Assembly (NCBI GenBank): GCA_947570265.1
Contig: CANOUR010000012.1
Location: 1-41,190 of the forward strand
Direction of reading: 5' to 3'
Source of the DNA: an uncultured Bacteroidales bacterium
GTDB lineage: Bacteria; Bacteroidota; Bacteroidia; Bacteroidales; Muribaculaceae
DNA length: 41,190 nucleotides
Shown: positions 1 through 9,900 of the stretch, in pieces
Layout of the letters: the number at the start of each line of letters is the position of its first letter
Numbering within the stretch: the first letter of the stretch is position 1
Notes under the pieces: model-generated
Database searches by the model: none
Seen by the model: only the letters and a program-made list of their open reading frames with translations
Told to the model about the DNA's origin: nothing
Translations under genes and position numbers: made by a program

Positions 1-959
1 GGTTTCATGCGGTCTTTATCGGCCTGCGTGACATATGAGGCATACTCTGCATCGTTAGAAAGCAATGGGAAAATATAATCGTCGGACTTGACATCTTCAT
101 TATGGTAATGTCGGAGAATATCAAGAGCCGGTTCAACAAGCAGCAAGTCGCGCTCCTTGTGATTCTTGCCCATCTGGTAATGAAGTCTGCCAGATGCCGT
201 GACATTGCGCCAACGTAACTGGATGAGGTCGGCAGCGCGTATTCCGGCACAGTAATAACTAAACAGAAAATAATTCTTGCAATGCCATATAAGTGAGTCC
301 TCCGGCAATTCAAGATTGATGATGCGCTGCATCTCACCATCATCAAGTTTTTCCTTTGTGGTCTTTACTCCCTTGTATTTGAAAACAAGGAACGGATCCT
401 TTGAAGCCTCCATAATGCCAACCTCAATAGCACGATGCACCAAAGTTCGCAGGATATTGAACTGCACCTCAATAGTGTTCGGGTGCAACAACTTTCCCGG
501 CTCTCGCTCATTTTCCCACTTGTGAAGGAAATTGTCGAACTTGGTCAGAAAATCCACTGTTAGATCGGCGATAGTAATATCCGCCATACGGCGTTTCTTA
601 TAGAACGCCTCCAGTTTGTTGATGAGTCCGCAATATTTTCGCCAGTTGCGCCAACCTCCACTGTCGTATATCATCTGTGCCCGCTCACGGGCAAACACCA
701 TGAAAGAAGGAGACACCACCTCTGTATTCATCTCTTTGGCGAGAAGCACAGTCGATACCTCACCCTCCTTGTCGAGTTCCTTGTAGGTTTCCTTAGCTTT
801 AGCAAGAATATCCGCAAGTTGAGCATTGAGAAGTTTGGCATCGCGGACACCGCCACGCACCCAGTTCTCACCCTTGCATTTTGCATTGAAGTCCGAGGGT
901 CGAGCCACCTCAATCGGAGTTTTGATAAATTTACGCTTCGCAGATCTGTGAATAAAAAT
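1..959 (-). mobile_element. Tyrosine-type site-specific recombinase/integrase, C-terminal part cut off by the left window edge. Bacteroidetes Int family. The N-terminal start is unresolved because no in-frame ATG/GTG/TTG follows the upstream TAA at 966-968.
   Basis: I hand-translated the minus strand in the frame that runs off position 1. It gives ...RSAKRKFIKTPIEVARPSDF...ADLTVDFLTKFDNFLHKWENEREPGKLLHPNTIEVQFNILRTLVHRAIEVGIME...EKLDDGEMQRIINLELPEDSLIWHCKNYFLFSYYCAGIRAADLIQLRWRNVTASGRLHYQMGKNHKERDLLLVEP...LSNDAEYASYVTQADKDRMKP. The SAM-like N-domain and the start of the catalytic domain are typical of Bacteroides integrases. The first in-frame ATG is at 731. Confidence 0.7.
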
Positions 960-1220
960 GAGGTGTTATACCATAATTGTCGAAAAAATTCGTTATATTC
1001 GCGGTTGGATAGACCGTGTCTATCTAGATGTCTTGAAAAAAGAAGCGTTATGCTTGTCTTGTAGGTGAAACGTAGGAAATCTCCAACAAATGCAAGAGTA
1101 GTGTAGGGGCTATCAGGAATATAGCATGAACTGCTATTGTTGCATCTATACTAATGGTTTCCTCCGGCATTCAATTATGACGAGGCATAGAGTCCACGCT
1201 TTTGTATATTAACCGGCTGC

Positions 1221-2366
1221 ATGGACTACGGCCATGAGTTACCTCTATACCCCTCCCTTATGGCAATCATTGACGTTGTAAAATATCAAACCGTAGATGG
1301 CGAACTTGTTCACAGGTTCGACTCTGACGATTTGCGTATGGGAACCCAACTTGTGGTGCATCCTGCTCAGACTGCTTTCTTTGTTAAGGGAGGCGCTATC
1401 TGCGACGAGTTTTCAGCTGGAACCTACAAACTCGACACTGAGAATATTCCTATTCTAAATAAGATCCTTAACCTTCCTTACGGCTCAGATTCTCCGTTCC
1501 AAGCCGAAGTTTGGTTTGTCAATCAAACCGCGAAACTCAATTTGCCCTGGGGCACACCGCACCCAATCCAAATTGAAGATCCGCGTTATCATATAATAGT
1601 GCCGGTTCGTGCGCATGGTCAATATGGTATCCGAGTAACCAATCCCCGCGCTTTTATGGAAACGCTGATTGGCAGCATGGGCACTTTCTCGTCTGACCAT
1701 ATAGAGCAATTCTATAAAGGCCGAATCATTTCGGCTCTTAATACATTGCTCGCGCAACAGATAGTCAATAATGGTATTTCCATTCTTGACATCAATACTC
1801 TGTTGCTAACAATGTCGGACTCTATCAATGAACAACTCAACGAACTGCTCGGCAAATATGGTGTTTCGATTATTGAGTTTGCTATAATGTCAGTCACTTT
1901 CCCACGGGACGATGAAAGTGTAATCAAACTCAAAAACGCCAAAGACCTCGCCGCTCGTTTGAACATCACTGGCCGCGATGTTTACCAAATGGAGCGCAGC
2001 TTCAATGTTCTTGACGCCGCTGCTAACAATGACGGAGTTGGTGGGCAAATGATGGGTATGGGTGTAGGCTTCGGCGCAGGTATGGGTATCGGCTCTGCCG
2101 TTGGAAACCTCGCCGGGCAATATATGAACACCAATCCCGCGCAAGTTCCACCGCTCCCTCAATCTGTACCCCTTTACTACATTGCCATTAACGGGCAACA
2201 AGTTCCCAACTTGACCGTTGAGGGGATTGCCACCTATATCGTTAATGGCACCGCCAACGCCTCCACTCTTGTATGGACTCCCGGAATGCCCAATTGGCTT
2301 CCGATAGCCCAAGTTCCTGCGTTGGCTTCTCTCCTTAATTCACCGACTCCACCACCATTGCCCTAA
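1221..2366 (+). CDS. SPFH/Band-7 family protein (COG4260 / 'Band_7_1', virion-core-protein-like) with a C-terminal GYF_2/DUF4339-like domain
   Basis: The N-terminal 230 aa (IDVVKYQTVDGELVHRF...GTQLVVHPAQTAFFVKGGAICDEFSAGTYKLDTENIPILNKILNLPYGSDSPFQAEVWFVNQTAKLNLPWGTPHPIQIEDPRYHIIVPVRAHGQYGIRVTNPRAFMETLIG) matches the SPFH family that normally ends in a Zn-ribbon. A Gly/Met-rich linker follows. The C-terminus (YYIAINGQQVPNLTVEGIATYIVNGTANASTLVWTPGMPNWLPIAQVPAL) fits the DUF4339 pattern. Confidence 0.75.
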   Translation: MDYGHELPLYPSLMAIIDVVKYQTVDGELVHRFDSDDLRMGTQLVVHPAQTAFFVKGGAICDEFSAGTYKLDTENIPILNKILNLPYGSDSPFQAEVWFVNQTAKLNLPWGTPHPIQIEDPRYHIIVPVRAHGQYGIRVTNPRAFMETLIGSMGTFSSDHIEQFYKGRIISALNTLLAQQIVNNGISILDINTLLLTMSDSINEQLNELLGKYGVSIIEFAIMSVTFPRDDESVIKLKNAKDLAARLNITGRDVYQMERSFNVLDAAANNDGVGGQMMGMGVGFGAGMGIGSAVGNLAGQYMNTNPAQVPPLPQSVPLYYIAINGQQVPNLTVEGIATYIVNGTANASTLVWTPGMPNWLPIAQVPALASLLNSPTPPPLP

Positions 2367-2378
2367 CTTCGTTGCTCC

Positions 2379-2729
2379 ATGATTAAACAGTCTCCAGTTT
2401 TCATCATCATTCTTTTGGTGATAAACATAGTAGCAGGTCTGATTCTTTCTTGCTACCCTCCGTTCAATATGATATTGAACTGTGTGGTTTTATGTGCTGC
2501 CATTGGCATTGCATATTGGACTAACAAGAAAGAAATCCTCCCTGCCTATAAGTTTTCATTGGCATTCATAGTGCCGGCCATTACGTTCATAGAACTCATT
2601 ATCGGTATTATCTCACCAAGCCAATTACAAGATAATTGGGGCATAATTGCAATACTATGCGGTCTTGCTTTCCAATATCTGTTGACTTACTCTGTAATTC
2701 ACATTTCTTATAAAGCAGAAAGAAGATAG
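2379..2729 (+). CDS. Small integral membrane protein (about 4 predicted TM helices), hypothetical
   Basis: 116-aa ORF lying 12 nt after the SPFH gene. It is strongly hydrophobic (FIIILLVINIVAGLIL...; ILNCVVLCAAIGIAYW; LAFIVPAITFIELIIGII; GIIAILCGLAFQYLL). Operon position with the SPFH protein. Confidence 0.5.
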   Translation: MIKQSPVFIIILLVINIVAGLILSCYPPFNMILNCVVLCAAIGIAYWTNKKEILPAYKFSLAFIVPAITFIELIIGIISPSQLQDNWGIIAILCGLAFQYLLTYSVIHISYKAERR

Positions 2730-2732
2730 ATT

Positions 2733-3788
2733 ATGAAAGCCTTAACGTGTGAAATGTGCGGATGCACGGAAATTGTGCGAAAGGACGGACTATATGTTTG
2801 TCAGGCTTGCGGCACAAAATATTCTGTTGAAGATGCAAAGAAGATGATGATGGAGGGAACCGTCAAGATTGACGGCCCCGTAAAAATAGATGAATCTGAA
2901 AGCCTCTCAAATCTTAGAACTTTAGCGCAGAGAGCGTCCGAAGCCAAAGATTGGGATAGAGCCTATCAGTATTACGAGAAAATTCTCTTAATGGAGCCTA
3001 ACGATTTTGATGCCTACCATAGCACTCAATTCTACCGTGCTTTTCTCGTAAATCAGCAGAATCTTTTTGCCGAACTTTCTTCAAGATTGTTCGTGTTCAA
3101 AAATGCTATTCCGACCATTAATAAACTTTTGAAAGACAAATTTGAAGGTCAGAATGTCGCACAAAAGGCAGTTGCAGTATGGGATCCCGTGTTCAAGAAC
3201 TGCGAGACATTATGGAACGACAATGGCGGAAGAATATCTTCTTGCATCTCTTTCACTGCCGACCAAGCCAAGCAGCAGCGCAATGAACAGAATATGAAAA
3301 TTATAATGGCCAACTGTGTTGCCATTGTTGATTTCATGTTTACACTCGTTAAGGATATACACTCTCAATACGGCACAATCATCCAAAGTTGGTACGTCAC
3401 CTATGCCAAAACTGCTGCCAACTTTGCTTCTCGCACTAAAGATTGCCCTAAGGAAACCTTAGACGCAATCAATAACTTCGTTAAAAATATAGAGCCTAAT
3501 TACACTCCGCAGAAAAAAGTGGGCTGCTATGTCGCTACCGCTGTATACGGCTCATACGATTGCCCTGAAGTTTGGACTTTACGCCGATTCCGTGACTACA
3601 CTCTCGCCGAAACCTGGTATGGTCGTGCGTTTATACGTATTTACTATGCGGTAAGTCCGACTCTTGTTAAGTGGTTTGGCAAATCTCGTTGGTTCAAAGC
3701 TTTTTGTCTTCCCCCAATTGACAAACTTGTTCTGCACCTTCAAGAAAAAGGAGTCGAAAGCATTCCATATCAAGATCGCCAGTGGTAA
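2733..3788 (+). CDS. Zinc-ribbon domain protein with TPR-like helical segment and conserved Cys-containing C-terminal domain; hypothetical
   Basis: The N-terminus CEMCGCTEIVRKDGLYVCQACG is a CxxC...CxxC ribbon. WDRAYQYYEKILLMEPNDFDAY is TPR-like. The C-terminus GCYVATAVYGSYDCPEVWTLRRFRDYTL...GRAFIRIYYAVSP is a recurring bacterial motif that I recognise but cannot name. The gene starts 3 nt after the previous gene. Confidence 0.6.
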   Translation: MKALTCEMCGCTEIVRKDGLYVCQACGTKYSVEDAKKMMMEGTVKIDGPVKIDESESLSNLRTLAQRASEAKDWDRAYQYYEKILLMEPNDFDAYHSTQFYRAFLVNQQNLFAELSSRLFVFKNAIPTINKLLKDKFEGQNVAQKAVAVWDPVFKNCETLWNDNGGRISSCISFTADQAKQQRNEQNMKIIMANCVAIVDFMFTLVKDIHSQYGTIIQSWYVTYAKTAANFASRTKDCPKETLDAINNFVKNIEPNYTPQKKVGCYVATAVYGSYDCPEVWTLRRFRDYTLAETWYGRAFIRIYYAVSPTLVKWFGKSRWFKAFCLPPIDKLVLHLQEKGVESIPYQDRQW

Positions 3789-3846
3789 TTGACAGGTTAC
3801 GACCAAGGTTACACCTATATATAAATTAATAAACTCTATATGTTGC

Positions 3847-4668
3847 ATGGATAATAATCTGAACCTCTTGCCTCCAGATGCCCCGATTTCACAAGAAAAA
3901 CAAGGAGCGTCTGACACGCAAGTTCCCCAACCGCCCCAACCACCTCAACTTCCCAAAAAGAAAAAAGGGAAAGGTTGTCTCATTGCAGTTGGCATCTTCG
4001 TTTTTCTTATGATATTAATTGCTATTTTCTCTGATGGTGACAACCAAGCAAAAAGTGACTCAGATGGTCTCGTAACCGATTCAACAGAAGTAGTTACTGA
4101 AGACATTGAGCACGCTGCGGCGGTAGCTACAGAAGAAGCTACAGAAGTAGTTACCGAAGACATTGAGCAAACCGCGGCGGTAGGTATTGATTCTGCCAAG
4201 ATTAGAAAACTTAGACCTTTCTTCACCGAGAAAAAAGACGAGTTTAAGGGAATTGTTTGGATCGAACCTAAAGCCCGGCCCAAATATACTAATGCGAACG
4301 GAATATGCACCTATTTCGCTCTCAATTCAGAGGGCAAGCCTGGAAACCTTCGTTTCCGTATTCAATATTATGCAAACGATTGGTTGTTTATTAACAGTTA
4401 TACTTTCTTGATTGACGGTAACATTTACACGTTCTCGAATCCCGATGTTGAGCGCGATAATAACAGCATGATATGGGAGTGGTCCGATACAGGTGTCGCT
4501 CAAAGTGGAGAAGTAGCTCAAATTCTGAATGCAATTAAGAACGCTAAAGAGGTAAAAATACGCTTTAATGGGCGCCAATATTATAAGGACAAAGTTCTCA
4601 CCCAAAAGGATATCAAAGCTATACAGCAACCAATAGAATACTTTGAAGCATTGGGCGGAAGATTCTAA
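3847..4668 (+). CDS. Single-pass membrane-anchored protein with Pro-rich cytoplasmic tail, tandemly duplicated acidic linker and C-terminal globular domain; hypothetical
   Basis: PQPPQPPQLPKKKKGKG is followed by the TM helix CLIAVGIFVFLMILIAIF. The duplicated linker is TEVVTEDIEHAAAVATEEA / TEVVTEDIEQTAAVGIDSA, and the C-terminal domain spans roughly GIVWIEPKARPKY...RFNGRQYYKD. This is the last gene of the AT-rich cassette. Confidence 0.55.
   Translation: MDNNLNLLPPDAPISQEKQGASDTQVPQPPQPPQLPKKKKGKGCLIAVGIFVFLMILIAIFSDGDNQAKSDSDGLVTDSTEVVTEDIEHAAAVATEEATEVVTEDIEQTAAVGIDSAKIRKLRPFFTEKKDEFKGIVWIEPKARPKYTNANGICTYFALNSEGKPGNLRFRIQYYANDWLFINSYTFLIDGNIYTFSNPDVERDNNSMIWEWSDTGVAQSGEVAQILNAIKNAKEVKIRFNGRQYYKDKVLTQKDIKAIQQPIEYFEALGGRF
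4084..4190 (+). repeat. Two-copy tandem repeat with a 57-nt period, inside the CDS 3847..4668
   Basis: acagaagtagttactgaagacattgagca at 4084-4112 recurs as acagaagtagttaccgaagacattgagca at 4141-4169. Each copy is followed by a cgcggcggtag-like segment. Confidence 0.8.
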
Positions 4669-4771
4669 TAAGATAGTGTAACTAAGAATTTTTGAGGCGT
4701 TGCGGCACCGCCGCTGCGCTTTCGTGAACCGGACCTTGATCTCGACCATGAGGCATCAATACCATAACTCG

Positions 4772-4804
4772 GACTCTCGGAGAAATCCGGGAGTCTTTGT
4801 TTGG
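4772..4804 (+). terminator. Putative intrinsic terminator of the 4-gene cassette
   Basis: 9-bp stem gactctcgg/ccgggagtc (one G-U wobble) with an agaaat loop, followed by tttgtttgg. Confidence 0.45.
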
Positions 4805-4861
4805 TACAAGCGTCCGCGATGGCATATTTAATGTGGATTCTTATATCGAACTTATGCTATA

Positions 4862-4900
4862 TTAATGCCAAGCCACACTTGAGATGTAGCTTGGCATTAA
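4862..4900. repeat. Perfect 12-bp stem/15-nt loop inverted repeat in the island-to-core junction
   Basis: ttaatgccaagc (4862-4873) is the reverse complement of gcttggcattaa (4889-4900). It sits in a 360-bp noncoding stretch where the AT-rich island meets the GC-rich purF-like gene. It could be an att/recombination site or a terminator. Confidence 0.5.
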
Positions 4901-5031
4901 ATTTCAGTATTTTGATTGTGTCCTATTCGGAAACAGATTATTTGTCCCCAAAATCATATTTCAGCAGTGGGTGCTGCTGCTTGCGATGATTTTTACATGG
5001 TTGCATTTCACTGATGGATACTGACGATGGG

Positions 5032-6921
5032 TCAGCGACGGGTGGGGTTGCCTTCAAAGTAGTTGATGTATGCTTTGTTGACGAGGCGTATGCCGCCCGG
5101 TGTGGGGTAGTCGCCGGAGAAGTACCAGTCGCCGGGGGATGTGGGCACGGCTTTGTGCAGTCCTTCGATGCTCTGATAGAGTATGTCGACTTTGGCTCCG
5201 GTCGAGGGCGGTGTGAGCATTGCGGCAATCTTGGCTGAGATCTGTTCGTCGGTAAATGGTTCGTAGATGGCTTTGACGCAGTTTTCGAGTTTGGCGGGAT
5301 CGGTGATGTGCTCTTGTCGTAGACAGCGTTCGTAGACTTCGCGCAACAGGGCGTCGCGGCCGGTTTCCTTTATGAGTTCGACTGCTGCCCGGAATGCGAT
5401 AAATTCGCTAAGCCGTGACATGTCGATACCGTAGTAGTCGGGGTAGCGTACCTGTGGCGATGATGACACGACTATGATGCGGCGGGGGGCGAGGCGGTCG
5501 AGCATGCTGATGATTGACTGGCGGAGTGTTGTGCCCCGGACAATTGAGTCGTCGATGACTACGAGTGTGTCGCGGTGGTTGTCGATGAGTCCGTATGTGA
5601 CGTCGTAGACATGGGCGGCAAGTTCGTTGCGGCTTTCGCCTTCGGCGATGAATGTGCGGAGTTTGATGTCTTTTATGGCTACTTTTTCAACGCGTAGTTT
5701 GTGAGCCATAATGTTTTCGAGGTTTTCGCGTGACAGATCTCCGTCGGCTGCCGCTTGCAGTATGCTGTCGGTTTTTAGACGATCCAGTTCGGCTTCGAGT
5801 CCGTCGATCATGCCGCGAAATGCCACTTCTGCGGTGTTGGGTATGAATGAAAAGACCGTATGATCCAGCTCGTCGTGGAGCATTTCCATGAGTCTGGGCA
5901 CGAGGTTTCGGCCGAGAGCCTTGCGCTCTTGATAGATGTCGGCGTCGCTACCGCGTGAGAAGTATATGCGTTCGAACGAGCAACGCTGGTTGGTGTCTTC
6001 GCTGAGTATGTCGACGATCTTGAATTCTCCGCGCTTTGTGACTATGAGGGCTGATCCGGGTGTGAGTTCCTCGATTTGCGACTTGCGCACGTTGAGTACT
6101 GTCTGGATTACGGGGCGTTCGGATGCGAGGACTACGATTTCATCGTCGTGGTAATAGTAGGCGGGGCGTATGCCGTGGCTGTCGCGCAGGGCAAACATGT
6201 CGCCCGATCCTGTGGCTCCGCACATGACAAATCCGCCGTCCCAGCTGCCGGCAGCTCCTTTCAGCATTCGCGCGACATCGATGCGGTCTTCGATCTCCAT
6301 GGTGAGCCGTGGTTCGTCGAGGGTGTCCCGCAGCTGCCGGTATATTCGTGAGTGCTCATGGTCGAGGGCGTAACCGAGTTGTTCGAGCAGTACGATGGTG
6401 TCGCTGTAGATGCGGGGGTGCTGTCCTTTCTGCACGACGGAGTTGAACATATCCTCGACATTGGTCATGTTGAAGTTGCCGCACATCAACAGGTTGCGAG
6501 AACGCCAGTTGTTGCGGCGGAGAAATGGATGGACGTAGGTTATGCCCTTTTTGCCGGTCGTGGAATAGCGTAGGTGACCCATGTATATCTCGCCGAGGAA
6601 GGGCACTTCCTCCTCGACTTCCCTCGATGTCGGGTCGGCGCACAATGCTGCGTCGACCTGAGGTCGGATAACGGAGAAAATATCCTGTATGGCACCTGTG
6701 CCGAGTGCTCGCTCGCGGAACACATATTCGTGGCCGGGCAGGGCATGCAGCTTGACGACGCCGACGCCGGCACCTTCCTGCCCACGGTTGTGCTGTTTCT
6801 CCATGAGCAGGTAAAGTTTGTTGAGGGCATAGGCATATGTGCCGTACTTTTCCTTATAGTATTCGAGCGGTTTGAGTAGGCGTATCATCGCCACACCGCA
6901 TTCGTGTTTGAGTTGTTCCAT
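5032..6921 (-). CDS. PurF-family class-II glutamine amidotransferase / amidophosphoribosyltransferase-like protein (long 629-aa form)
   Basis: N-terminal Ntn motif MEQLKHECGV (Cys nucleophile). PRTase signature VVIDDSIVRGTTLRQSI. It lies 9 nt downstream of gltB on the same strand. Confidence 0.8.
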   Translation of the reverse strand: MEQLKHECGVAMIRLLKPLEYYKEKYGTYAYALNKLYLLMEKQHNRGQEGAGVGVVKLHALPGHEYVFRERALGTGAIQDIFSVIRPQVDAALCADPTSREVEEEVPFLGEIYMGHLRYSTTGKKGITYVHPFLRRNNWRSRNLLMCGNFNMTNVEDMFNSVVQKGQHPRIYSDTIVLLEQLGYALDHEHSRIYRQLRDTLDEPRLTMEIEDRIDVARMLKGAAGSWDGGFVMCGATGSGDMFALRDSHGIRPAYYYHDDEIVVLASERPVIQTVLNVRKSQIEELTPGSALIVTKRGEFKIVDILSEDTNQRCSFERIYFSRGSDADIYQERKALGRNLVPRLMEMLHDELDHTVFSFIPNTAEVAFRGMIDGLEAELDRLKTDSILQAAADGDLSRENLENIMAHKLRVEKVAIKDIKLRTFIAEGESRNELAAHVYDVTYGLIDNHRDTLVVIDDSIVRGTTLRQSIISMLDRLAPRRIIVVSSSPQVRYPDYYGIDMSRLSEFIAFRAAVELIKETGRDALLREVYERCLRQEHITDPAKLENCVKAIYEPFTDEQISAKIAAMLTPPSTGAKVDILYQSIEGLHKAVPTSPGDWYFSGDYPTPGGIRLVNKAYINYFEGNPTRR

Positions 6922-6930
6922 CGGATTGGG

Positions 6931-9900
6931 TTATACTGTTTTACCGGTCTTTTCGCTTTCGAGCAGATCAATGTACTCAAAAGGCATGACCTTTATGAAT
7001 TGGTTGACATATGATGTCCAGTTGTCGAGCATTTTTGCGGCAAGCGGACTGCGGGTGTGCTTGTAGTGATTACCAATTAAGGTGTACAGTTCGCGGCTAT
7101 CTGCGGGATCTTCGACCAGTTGGAGCTCAACTGTCTGCAAATTGCAGAAGTAGTCGAAGTTGCCGTCTGGATTCCATACATAGGCAACTCCTCCGCTCAT
7201 GCCGGCTGCAAAATTTCGTCCGACAGGGCCGAGAACTACAGTGATTCCGTCGGTCATGTATTCGCAGCAGTGGTCGCCCACGCCTTCGACAACGGCTGTC
7301 GCTCCCGAATTGCGGACGCAGAATCGTTCGCCGACCTGTCCGTTTATGTAGACTTCGCCCGATGTGGCGCCGTAGAGGAGTGTATTGCCGGCTATAGTGT
7401 TGAGAGCCGGATCGAAATTAGATCCACGTGGCGGGCGTATGTAGATATGTCCGCCGGAGAGGCTTTTGCCAACGTAGTCGTTGGCTTCGCCCTCAAGGGT
7501 AAAGGTGATGCCGTGGGCCAGAAATGCGCCGAAGCTTTGTCCGGCAGATCCGCGGAATGTGCATCGGATTGTGTTGTCGGGCAGGCCTGCATCGCCATAT
7601 TTTTTCGCTATTGTTCCCGAGAGCATCGCACCGACCGACCTGTCGGTGTTGGCGATGGGAAAGTCGAGTTCGACAGGCATGGCATGCTCGATCGCCGGGA
7701 ATGAGCGACCGATGAGCTCGCGGTCGAGAACGTGCTCGATGTCATGACGTTGGCCAGTGGTGCGGCGGAGGCTTACATGTCCGTCATTGTCGGGCATGTG
7801 CAGCAGCCTAGAGAAATCGACATCGGGCATGTCATTGAATGCCTCCATTGGTTTGCGATGGAGCAGATCGGCGTGTCCGATGATCTCGTCGAGAGAGCGG
7901 AATCCGGCTTGAGCGAGATGACGGCGCACATCGCGGGCGATAAATCTGAAGTAATTGGCTACATATTCGGCTTTTCCGGCAAAACGGGCACGAAGAGCAG
8001 GATCTTGTGTGGCTATACCTCCGGGGCATGTGTTGACGTGGCATTGACGTGACATCATGCATCCGAGGACGATGAGAGCGCTTGTCGCGAATCCAAATTC
8101 CTCAGCGCCGAGCATGGCCATGATCATCACGTCGCGGCCTGTCTTGAGCTGGCCGTCGGCCTGAAGTGTGACGAGGCCACGCAATCCGTTGAGCACGAGT
8201 GTCTGCTGTGTCTCGGCCAGTCCGGTCTCAAGTGGCATGCCGGCGAATCTGATGGAACTTGTGGGTGATGCACCTGTGCCTCCGCTGCCTCCACTGATAA
8301 CGAGCAGGTCGGCTTTGGATTTGGCGACACCGGCTGCAATAGTGCCTACACCGCTCTCACTGACAAGCTTTACGCTGACAGTGGCTGACGGATTGATGTT
8401 TTTCAGGTCGAAAATCAGCTGAGCGAGATCTTCGATCGAATAAATATCGTGGTGGGGTGGGGGAGAAATGAGCGATATTCCCGGCTTGGATCGTCTGGTG
8501 CGCGCGATGATCTCGTCGACTTTGAATCCGGGGAGCTGTCCACCTTCACCAGGCTTTGCACCTTGTGCCACTTTTATCTGAAGTTCGTCGGCGTTGATCA
8601 GATATTCAGCCGTGACCCCGAAGCGTCCCGATGCCACCTGCTTGATGGCATTGCGAGAACTTGTGCCGTCGGCACGTGGTGTGAACCGTTCGCGGTCTTC
8701 TCCACCCTCTCCGGTGTTGGAGCGGGCGCCGATTGAGTTCATTGCTATAGCCAATGTCTCGTGGGCTTCGCGTGATATCGATCCGAACGACATTGCCCCG
8801 GTGACAAAGCGCCGTATGATATCACTCTCGCTTTCAACCTGATCGATGGGTATGGGTGTGCCTCGTTTCCAGTCGAGGAAATCGCGGATGAAAATCGGCT
8901 GCGGCTTGTCATCGACAAGCGATGCGAACTCAAGATATTTATCGAACGATCCGGTGCGTGTGGCCTGTTGCAGTGCTGCGATTGTTTTTGGAGTCCAGGC
9001 GTGTTGCTCTCCTTGTGGATGGAATGAATACTGACCGATGTGGCGCAGTGGAGCGGAGGCATCGAAATCAGGACTGTAGGCCTCGGCGTGGGCGGTCGAT
9101 ATAAGACGGTGTAGGTCATCGAGTGTGATGCCGCCGAGAGTGCTGTCTGTGTGGCCGAGATAGCGTTGCGCGATTGAGTTGCTTATGCCGAGCGCCTCGA
9201 ATAGTTGGGCGCCTTTGTAGGATGTTAGGGTCGATATACCCATCTTTGACATGATCTTCAGCAGACCTTTGTCGATGGCTTCGACGTAGTGGCGTACAGC
9301 TGTGTCATAGTCGAGCTGCACCTTCTTTTCATCAACGAGGCGGTGTATTACCGCGTAGGCCAGATAAGGGTTGACAGCATCAGCGCCATAGCCCGACAAG
9401 AGTGCGAAGTGCATCACCTCGCGGGCATCGGCAGTTTCTACTATAAGTGCTGCCTGAAGTCGTTTCTTGCAGTTGATCAGATGGTGGTGTACGGCCGACG
9501 TGGCAAGCAAAGAGGGTATGGGTGCGTGATCGGAATCGACGCTGCGGTCGGAGAGAACTATGTATGTCTGTCCGGCATCGATGGCATCCTCTACCTCTTT
9601 GCAGAGCCGGTCAATTGCTTCCTCCAGCGCGGTTGCGCCGTCGGATACGCGGTATACCATGGACACCTTGCGTGATGAAATGCCTTTGTATCTCAGATTG
9701 CACAGAATATCGAGCTCGCGGTTGGTGAGCACGGGGCGTTTCAGCTCGATCATCTTGCAGAGCGCGGGACTTGGCTCAAGCAGATTCATGTCGATCGATC
9801 CGATGTAGCTGTCGAGGCTCATCACGAGCGATTCGCGCAAAGGATCAATCGGAGGATTGGTTACCTGTGCGGAATGTTGACGGAAATAGTCGAAGAATGT

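Follow-up and report, generated by a model that had tools for sequence, protein, structure and literature searches.

In Bacillus subtilis the soluble SPFH protein YdjI (SamI) is taken to the membrane by the zinc-ribbon protein YdjG together with YdjH, and organises an envelope-stress response (PMC8581546; PMC11237479; bioRxiv 10.64898/2026.02.06.704340). Another type of locus, the rAID-1 cluster, has been described as a combination of a recombinase, low-GC genes and repetitive, integron-like intergenic sequences (bioRxiv 10.1101/471110). Here we analyse a 41,190-nucleotide stretch of DNA from an uncultured Bacteroidales bacterium of the Muribaculaceae (GenBank contig CANOUR010000012.1, positions 1 to 41,190; the window). 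At its left end a four-gene operon (g1 to g4), encoding an SPFH protein and three putative partners, lies behind a long hairpin leader and beside a tyrosine integrase gene. An earlier reading made from the letters alone (the sequence-only reading) had described positions 1-4950 as a small integrase-bounded, AT-rich island with an uncharacterised four-gene membrane-associated module, and could match it to no named system; the nearest characterised analogue is the pspA-ydjGHI (samGHI) envelope-stress module of B. subtilis (PMC8581546, PMC11237479). We tentatively favour the view that the products of this accessory, horizontally mobile operon would assemble into a scaffold of the SPFH kind at the inner membrane, on its cytoplasmic side.

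The operon and its relatives

The four open reading frames (ORFs), all on the plus strand, extend from 1221 or 1260 to 2366 (g1), 2379 to 2729 (g2), 2733 to 3788 (g3) and 3847 to 4668 (g4). The gaps between them are 12, 3 and 58 nt, in agreement with the tight operon described by the sequence-only reading. Because the homologues of g1 are 368 aa long, translation probably starts at 1260 and not at the alternative upstream ATG at 1221.

The product of g1 (1260-2366) is a soluble protein composed of an SPFH domain, a Gly/Met-rich linker, a GYF_2 domain and a PPPLP tail. Residues 31-239 match Band_7_1 (PF13421) with an E-value of 8.8e-48 and 163.1 bits, the gathering cutoff being 24; the general Band_7 model gives a weak match (5.5e-7). 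No hydrophobic segments were found in g1. The C-terminal GYF_2/DUF4339 domain (Pfam, 5.6e-12) resembles the GYF domain of GltJ (PDB 7z3c, 3.6e-6). The sequence-only reading had expected a separate DUF4339-type partner; the domain turned out to be fused to the SPFH protein. A PPPxP tail is present in the SPFH protein of 70 of 79 loci. Residues ~258-290 (window ~2030-2130) form a glycine-rich GxxxG-type stretch, GVGGQMMGMGVGFGAGMGIGSAVGNLAG, whose glycines are invariant even in a Clostridial homologue, and which might be a membrane-inserting or oligomerising segment. Binding of a Pro-rich partner by GYF_2 as a general rule was rejected, such a stretch occurring in 2 of 128 downstream proteins; the idea was retained solely for two cases, g4 and the tail of the SPFH protein itself.

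The 116-aa protein encoded by g2 (2379-2729) has four hydrophobic segments, predicted to form four transmembrane (TM) helices. It matched no family in the Pfam, PADLOC and NCBIfam scans.

Domain scans of g3 (2733-3788) revealed a zinc-ribbon head, an alpha-helical repeat core and a C-terminal CFI-box domain. The N-terminal CxxC...CxxC ribbon consists of C6, C9, C23 and C26, the TPR matches are weak, and the CFI-box-CTERM domain (NF041770, 2.2e-20) had escaped the sequence-only reading. A fold search returned a generic helical repeat, and no clear TM segment was seen. Several public gene calls place the start of g3 at the second ATG (2754, 344 aa), which loses the first conserved ribbon cysteine; the alignment supports the start at 2733. 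The family of g3 comprises more than 7,000 proteins and reaches Firmicutes at ~40% full-length identity. Mean pairwise identity is 75% in the ribbon head and 72% in the CFI-box, but drops to 25% in the middle. Between cassettes whose SPFH proteins are 85-88% identical, DNA similarity breaks off at the ribbon head and returns at the CFI-box. Since conserved ends flank a 25%-identical middle, and since DNA similarity is interrupted there, the middle domain must be either exchanged or very fast evolving.

The fourth gene, g4 (3847-4668), encodes a bitopic protein. Its cytoplasmic tail is Pro-rich with a KKKK motif, and a single TM segment and an acidic linker lead to an extracytoplasmic beta-sandwich (residues 116-273), for which the fold search returned a generic IalB-like beta-sandwich. 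The acidic linker carries a 57-nt tandem duplication (4084-4186, copies 89% identical), which is missing from the closest homologues (~252 aa).

One genome per species was searched, 185,579 in all, with a narrow search pattern, and 113 relatives were found. Nearly all belong to Bacteroidales, those of Muribaculaceae being the closest (84-87%); two come from Fibrobacter-type metagenome-assembled genomes. Gene architecture was counted in 73 non-redundant Bacteroidales/Fibrobacter loci. A g2-like gene follows g1 immediately in 67 of them, and a canonical g3 is present in 25. At least one zinc-ribbon-headed gene lies downstream in 65 loci, the co-occurrence that the sequence-only reading had proposed to look for, and at least two such genes lie there in 17. 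The downstream genes mostly belong to zinc-ribbon Pfam families, their C-terminal parts being otherwise unannotated and diverse. The combination of an SPFH protein, a four-TM protein and one or more zinc-ribbon-headed proteins thus recurs as an operon type throughout Bacteroidales, and the four genes of the window are not a module of their own kind; g4, with 35 homologues among 5.8 billion proteins, is a rare add-on.

Zinc-ribbon-headed partners are not confined to the downstream side of the SPFH gene: in two Phocaeicola/Bacteroides loci (L091, 8712-10004; L095, 8862-10004; both plus strand) the start of the SPFH gene is overlapped by a preceding gene, whose product has a zinc-ribbon head, then WG beta-repeats, and TM segments at the C-terminus. 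The association of the g3 family with PF13421 SPFH proteins extends to Clostridiales. In a Clostridiales genome a g3 homologue was found 1.1 kb downstream of a PF13421 SPFH gene. The product of the latter ends, as YdjI does, in double zinc ribbons (DZR/Zn_Ribbon_1).

The hairpin leader

The segment between the integrase and g1 contains a structured leader (1030-1215, plus strand, ending ~45 nt 5′ of the g1 start), which consists of a single long imperfect hairpin followed by a U-rich tract. The closing helix of the leader is AGAAGCGU/ACGCUUUU; in the fold of the region, closed by AGAAGCGU/ACGCUUCU, the U-rich tract comes after the helix. The 225 nt upstream of g1 show 87% column identity across five loci, which is above that of coding DNA. 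The plus strand of the leader folds with -49.1 kcal/mol (z -2.34), compared with -35.3 kcal/mol (z -0.66) for the minus strand.

A covariance model (R1) was built from ten sequences, including the window copy, which as a model seed scores 156.8 bits and is the single copy in the window. In at least 35 of ~80 loci, Fibrobacter included, R1 detects a plus-strand copy with which the operon begins at its 5′ end. Where a zinc-ribbon gene precedes g1, the hairpin stands ahead of that gene. One of 80 control loci had an R1 match, and this locus (L130) is itself a model seed. Across 28 aligned copies, whose alignment had been fitted to R1, 91.3% of the cells are paired and 37 of 44 pairs have compensatory changes. 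In the same alignment 239 cells changed on both sides, compared with 78±9 in shuffles (0 of 500 reached the observed value), and slid controls paired merely 38-52% of cells. A search of Rfam 15 with positions 950-1300, extended to E<=10, gave no family for the leader, which therefore seems not to have been catalogued. The Bacteroides -7 promoter motif TAnnTTTG does not occur on the plus strand within 966-1259. Other copies of the element were located at L011 9779-9965, L087 9763-9960, L070 8749-8982, L130 16026-16219 (minus strand) and L052 2730-2919.

The element is found outside SPFH operons as well. An exact three-block pattern picked out 70 IMG/VR contigs (L205-L274), and R1 confirmed the element in all 70 (96-178 bits); none carries an SPFH gene. 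An integrase of the window type is present on 40 of the 70, usually on the strand of the element and ~2.5 or 4.8 kb ahead of it, and a DUF5906-type primase on 23. In 61 contigs the element is followed by an ORF whose start lies no more than 250 nt away, mostly at 35-45 nt. The cargo encoded there is diverse: many lipoproteins and secreted proteins, a TOTE conflict-system helicase, a class A beta-lactamase, DUF1266, BatD and an SH3 membrane protein. These contexts indicate that the element is a portable unit placed ahead of cargo genes on Bacteroidales integrative elements.

Because G-U pairs are frequent and the sense strand folds better than its complement, we favour an RNA leader, and the hairpin is possibly an attenuator. 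A recombination site folded as single-stranded DNA, as in integrons or in the repetitive intergenic sequences of rAID-1 clusters (bioRxiv 10.1101/471110), is a less favoured possibility. For mobile cargo the leader might thus act as a switch that governs expression in general, or else as the place of capture.

The strain-variable segment and mobility

The tyrosine integrase gene (1-908, minus strand, coding from 3) is divergent from the operon, and its 3′ part lies beyond the window, as the sequence-only reading had noticed. In the Pfam search the frame from ~908 to 3 matched Phage_int_SAM_5 (3e-13) and Phage_integrase (2e-7). A longer contig of the same strain (L001) holds the complete gene (433 aa). 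The start called there is a GTG, the frame being open up to 965. The complete protein matches XerC/XerD-type models below cutoff. To the left of the integrase, L001 encodes an ATPase (AAA_14/DUF4143), and beyond that the N-terminal part of a protein that weakly resembles primase-polymerases (NF040561, 1.4e-4); the ORFs there (L001 3-221 and 229-1512, minus strand) lie 0.6-2.1 kb beyond the left edge of the window. Because of the ATPase and primase-like genes beyond it, the integrase probably opens a mobile element that runs leftwards, away from the SPFH operon.

The difference in base composition was also borne out: the GC content is 0.438 at 1-4950 and 0.520 at 5032-41190. Among the genes, g1 has 0.476, g2 0.370, g3 0.425 and g4 0.418, with 43.4% for the operon. 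Elsewhere too the cassette tends to be poorer in GC than its surroundings (in 67 of 79 loci, median difference -5.3 points).

The extent of the accessory DNA was determined by comparison with a sister strain, ten contigs of which (L195-L204) were reached through 90% cluster members of the purF-like protein. In blastn alignments the DNA of L195-L199 follows L001 at 98.9% identity through a core (glnA3-gltB-purF) of up to 7.5 kb; the alignment then breaks off at L001 6977 and continues at L001 1944. At this site, near the purF-like gene, 5,032 bp of the window strain are missing from the sister strain, which supplies the locus without the cassette that the sequence-only reading had hoped for. 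The segment takes in 85% of the integrase gene, counted from its 5′ end, together with the leader, g1 to g4 and 172 nt past g4. Its right boundary, taken from the blastn alignments to L001 and the junction sequences, lies between 4840 and 4841 and not at 4950; its left end is 191 nt outside the left edge of the window, within the integrase gene. Microhomology at the junction is limited to the 3-nt TAA. The sister strain keeps a 207-nt 3′ fragment of the integrase gene (86% identity) followed by a different ATPase gene. The aligned sister contigs all stop ~545 nt after the integrase fragment, which suggests repeated DNA. By ORF comparison, L200-L203 have the same 58-aa integrase-remnant ORF at an equal distance after purF; the alignment covered L195-L199.

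No convincing direct or inverted repeats that could represent att sites were found within 1-5200. The lack of att repeats, the breakpoint inside the integrase gene and the orientation of the integrase, directed away from the operon, argue that the segment is not a clean integrase-bounded insertion. It is better described as accessory DNA that varies between strains and occupies a hot spot rich in recombinases. Of the island proposed by the sequence-only reading, the accessory DNA beside an integrase was thus substantiated, the boundaries were not. The state of the sister strain could reflect either a deletion or a site that was empty ancestrally. When metagenome contigs were scanned with purF for an empty site, the best relative had 73% identity and no conserved synteny, and the operon was present in 0 of 80 purF-centred Bacteroidales loci. 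An invertible promoter beside the recombinase was rejected, as flanking inverted repeats were not found.

Relatives with 84-88% identical SPFH proteins occur in several mobile contexts. One copy belongs to a prophage, where it lies between terminase and phage-methyltransferase genes on one side and the portal gene on the other; a head protease is also present. Others are situated at the end of elements with a relaxase, MobC, a DUF5906 primase and HTH_17, and another lies near an integrase and an extracytoplasmic function sigma factor. In a seed-based phmmer scan, mobility markers were found within 10 kb in 7 of 80 genome loci compared with 1 of 80 control loci. In phages the SPFH gene itself is rare: just seven distant matches (21-27% identity) were detected in GenBank phages and two in IMG/VR.

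The two nearest upstream ORFs (113 proteins), subjected to a Pfam scan that is more sensitive than the seed-based one, belong to 137 Pfam families, which argues that there is no conserved synteny. The families include integrases (5), resolvases (4), protein kinases on PD-T4-6/Stk2 models (4), WYL_2 (4), Fic (3) and HepT (2). Related tyrosine recombinases are encoded by one of the two nearest upstream ORFs in five loci (L038, L041, L083, L091 and L095); they have ~195 aa in four loci and 359 aa in L083. In L095 (recombinase 7958-8545, plus strand) the recombinase, the hairpin, the zinc-ribbon/WG-repeat gene and the SPFH operon are all co-directional, a layout resembling that published for rAID-1. 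A resolvase lies upstream in four other loci, and in L025 one of the two nearest upstream ORFs is an IS66 transposase. The upstream Ser/Thr kinases of four loci match PADLOC PD-T4-6/Stk2/mad6 (up to 1e-42), which may be generic kinase-domain similarity. Judged from clustering, they are probably L052 7362-8642, L053 824-2104, L055 1437-3155 and L102 7752-9017. Downstream, at most 5 of 128 genes are on PADLOC candidate-system models: two proteins match PDC-M64A/B (best 9e-45), and one each PDC-M64C, PDC-S14 (4e-122), PDC-S31 and PDC-S57.

Two further hairpins were noted 3′ of g4. The first (4771-4796, plus strand) is terminator-like with a T-rich tail, comes from a consensus scan alone and falls within the variable segment. 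The second (4862-4900; inverted repeat I8, 16-nt arms, 94% complementary) lies in core DNA common to the sister strain, inside the 98.9%-identical alignment, and is probably the terminator of the convergent purF-like gene (5032-6921, minus strand). No tRNA, and no Rfam family at gathering score, was detected in the window. The rest of the window consists of ordinary Bacteroidales core genes (purF-like, gltB, glnA type III, dapF, GH92 enzymes, a ROK kinase and DprA).

Possible function and comparison with known systems

If the operon builds a scaffold at the inner membrane, the contacts could be as follows. The anchorless SPFH protein g1 would be recruited to the membrane, and held there, by the four-TM protein g2. 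The GYF_2 domain of g1 could bind its own conserved PPPxP tail, and such head-to-tail contacts would close the oligomer. The zinc-ribbon-headed proteins, represented by g3 in the window and by one to four paralogues at other loci, may dock by the ribbon head and the CFI-box, leaving their fast-changing helical-repeat surface to choose clients or signals. From the other side, g4 would contribute a periplasm-facing beta-sandwich, tied in by its Pro-rich cytoplasmic tail. Such a complex might monitor or buffer envelope damage, and mobile elements would carry the operon as protective cargo against attacks directed at the membrane by phage, contact-dependent toxins or membrane-active compounds. The operon would be expressed by way of its conserved hairpin leader, a type also found ahead of other cargo on Bacteroidales integrative elements. 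The accessory, mobile and mosaic character of the operon suggests a protective role in conflicts rather than housekeeping.

A role in phage defence or abortive infection, which the sequence-only reading had put forward, is plausible from the context. In a specific form of this idea the operon would be an anti-phage system proper, acting by abortive infection or exclusion. The zinc-ribbon protein would sense a phage product through its variable helical domain and then release or activate a membrane-disrupting element. This element, either the four-TM protein or a segment of the SPFH protein that resembles a glycine zipper, would be kept inert by an SPFH cage until infection. Several features fit this: the operon is strain-variable, it is cargo of a prophage, beside a phage methyltransferase gene, and of mobilisable elements, the zinc-ribbon-headed proteins show sensor-like mosaicism and form tandem arrays of paralogues, and the same type of leader precedes a TOTE conflict-system helicase on another element. 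The neighbours point in the same direction, with PD-T4-6-like kinases, Fic, HepT and WYL proteins, the few downstream genes on the PADLOC candidates PDC-M64, S14, S31 and S57, and recombinases, which mark defence loci in Bacteroidota (PMC13552941), although this is neighbourhood evidence and not a formal enrichment test. However, none of the four proteins has a PADLOC match, they contain no effector domain such as a nuclease, NADase or protease, the sole characterised relative is a stress module and not a suicide system, and our literature search found no paper that ties SPFH proteins to phage defence. We regard a suicide or exclusion system of this kind as unlikely.

We judge it improbable, too, that the operon is an ordinary envelope-homeostasis module for membrane microdomains or protein quality control, without any conflict role. 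Mobile pickup would then be occasional, and the low GC would follow from membrane-protein composition. Homology to YdjI (PMC8581546) speaks for this explanation, and so do the GC content of the cassettes, which follows that of the host (range 31-52%), and the 73 of 80 genome loci where the seed-based scan found no integrase or mobility marker within 10 kb. Against it stand the lack of conserved synteny (137 Pfam families among 113 upstream neighbours), a patchy distribution (113 matches in 185,579 species genomes with the narrow pattern), and the absence of the operon from a near-identical strain and from all 80 purF-centred Bacteroidales loci. The hypervariable middle of g3, and a leader common to mobile-element cargo, likewise count against it.

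An integron-like or rAID-1-like cassette serving interbacterial immunity rather than phage defence, in which the hairpin would be a single-stranded-DNA recombination site used by the adjacent tyrosine recombinase to capture cargo, seems very improbable: a tyrosine recombinase does accompany the hairpin here and in 40 of the 70 viral-contig copies, very diverse cargo follows at a fixed 35-45 nt, and structure is kept more than sequence, in line with the rAID-1 description (bioRxiv 10.1101/471110), but there is usually one hairpin per locus and not per gene, the G-U pairs and strand asymmetry favour a sense-strand RNA, the hairpin does not bound the variable segment, the recombinase of the window is divergent, and no immunity-family match was obtained in Pfam/NCBIfam scans, no dedicated comparison with immunity-gene sets having been made.

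We return to the accessory scaffold operon, which has a bolder extension. The SPFH protein, the four-TM protein and the swappable zinc-ribbon-headed proteins might constitute an unrecognised membrane immunity system of gut Bacteroidales, borne by mobile genetic elements, directed against phage or contact-dependent toxins, and switched on via structured leader RNAs of a novel class, by which mobile elements would in general express their cargo. We consider this doubtful as a whole. Gut Bacteroidales are thinly covered by the present catalogues of defence and stress systems, and the operon type offers a tractable case, with an SPFH scaffold moving among a prophage, mobilisable elements and chromosomes, and a partner whose middle domain is replaced between two constant ends. 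Should the operon shield the envelope from phage or interbacterial toxins, a scaffold-based mechanism would be added to bacterial immunity. The large PF13421/COG4260 and CFI-box families would then also gain a function.

Among the described systems, Kiwa-like membrane-anchored systems resemble the operon in combining a small polytopic membrane protein with a cytoplasmic partner in variable regions. Kiwa and similar membrane-anchored defence systems are not known to have an SPFH component. Integrons have an attC-type hairpin after each cassette, bounding it, whereas here one hairpin stands upstream and the variable segment is not bounded by it. With rAID-1 clusters (bioRxiv 10.1101/471110) the locus shares a tyrosine recombinase beside low-GC accessory genes on mobile DNA of gut Bacteroidales, and a conserved non-coding element ahead. 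A rAID-1 cluster, however, requires a 5′ XerD-like recombinase, more than 44% identical to BF9343_RS08045 and followed by at least two co-directional genes, a GC content not above 41% and repeated intergenic motifs; in the window the integrase is divergent, on the opposite strand, the operon has 43.4% GC, with g2 alone below 41%, and the leader occurs in a single copy. The stomatin/flotillin-NfeD (YqiJ/YuaF) operons also place the gene of a small polytopic membrane protein next to that of an SPFH scaffold, but no NfeD/OB-fold domain was detected in g2 (Pfam), and the SPFH protein here belongs to the anchorless PF13421 branch.

Some observations weigh against the reading that we prefer, or against the analogy with YdjGHI on which it draws. 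The family as a whole may be long-resident, because the seed-based scan found no integrase or mobility marker within 10 kb in 73 of the 80 genome loci. As the sequence-only reading had anticipated, the four proteins correspond to no named defence system: they have no significant match in PADLOC-DB 2.0 (best E 0.0034-0.012, all partial). PHROG contains no matching model for them either. Kinship of g2 with a five-TM protein encoded beside the Clostridial relative was rejected, since no similarity signal was obtained. The components differ as well. YdjI ends in a zinc ribbon, whereas g1 ends in GYF_2 and the PPPLP tail, and YdjG combines zinc ribbons with an NTF2-like domain and a TM segment, whereas g3 has a helical repeat and a CFI-box. 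The partner YdjH has a TPM domain, for which neither g2 nor g4 gives a Pfam match, and pspA has no counterpart, as PspA_IM30 matches none of the four window proteins. Nor is PspA_IM30 among the 25 commonest neighbour families. Moreover, the operon described here is mobile, strain-variable and preceded by a structured leader.

On the other hand, both modules encode an anchorless SPFH protein of the PF13421 family, followed by a glycine-rich low-complexity stretch after the SPFH domain, and a partner with a zinc-ribbon head, in an operon; YdjI, moreover, depends on co-encoded membrane proteins. With four of the five testable features of the YdjGHI module lacking, the operon is not a member of that module, but its SPFH protein belongs to PF13421. 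We regard it as a variant of the SPFH scaffold modules with zinc-ribbon partners.

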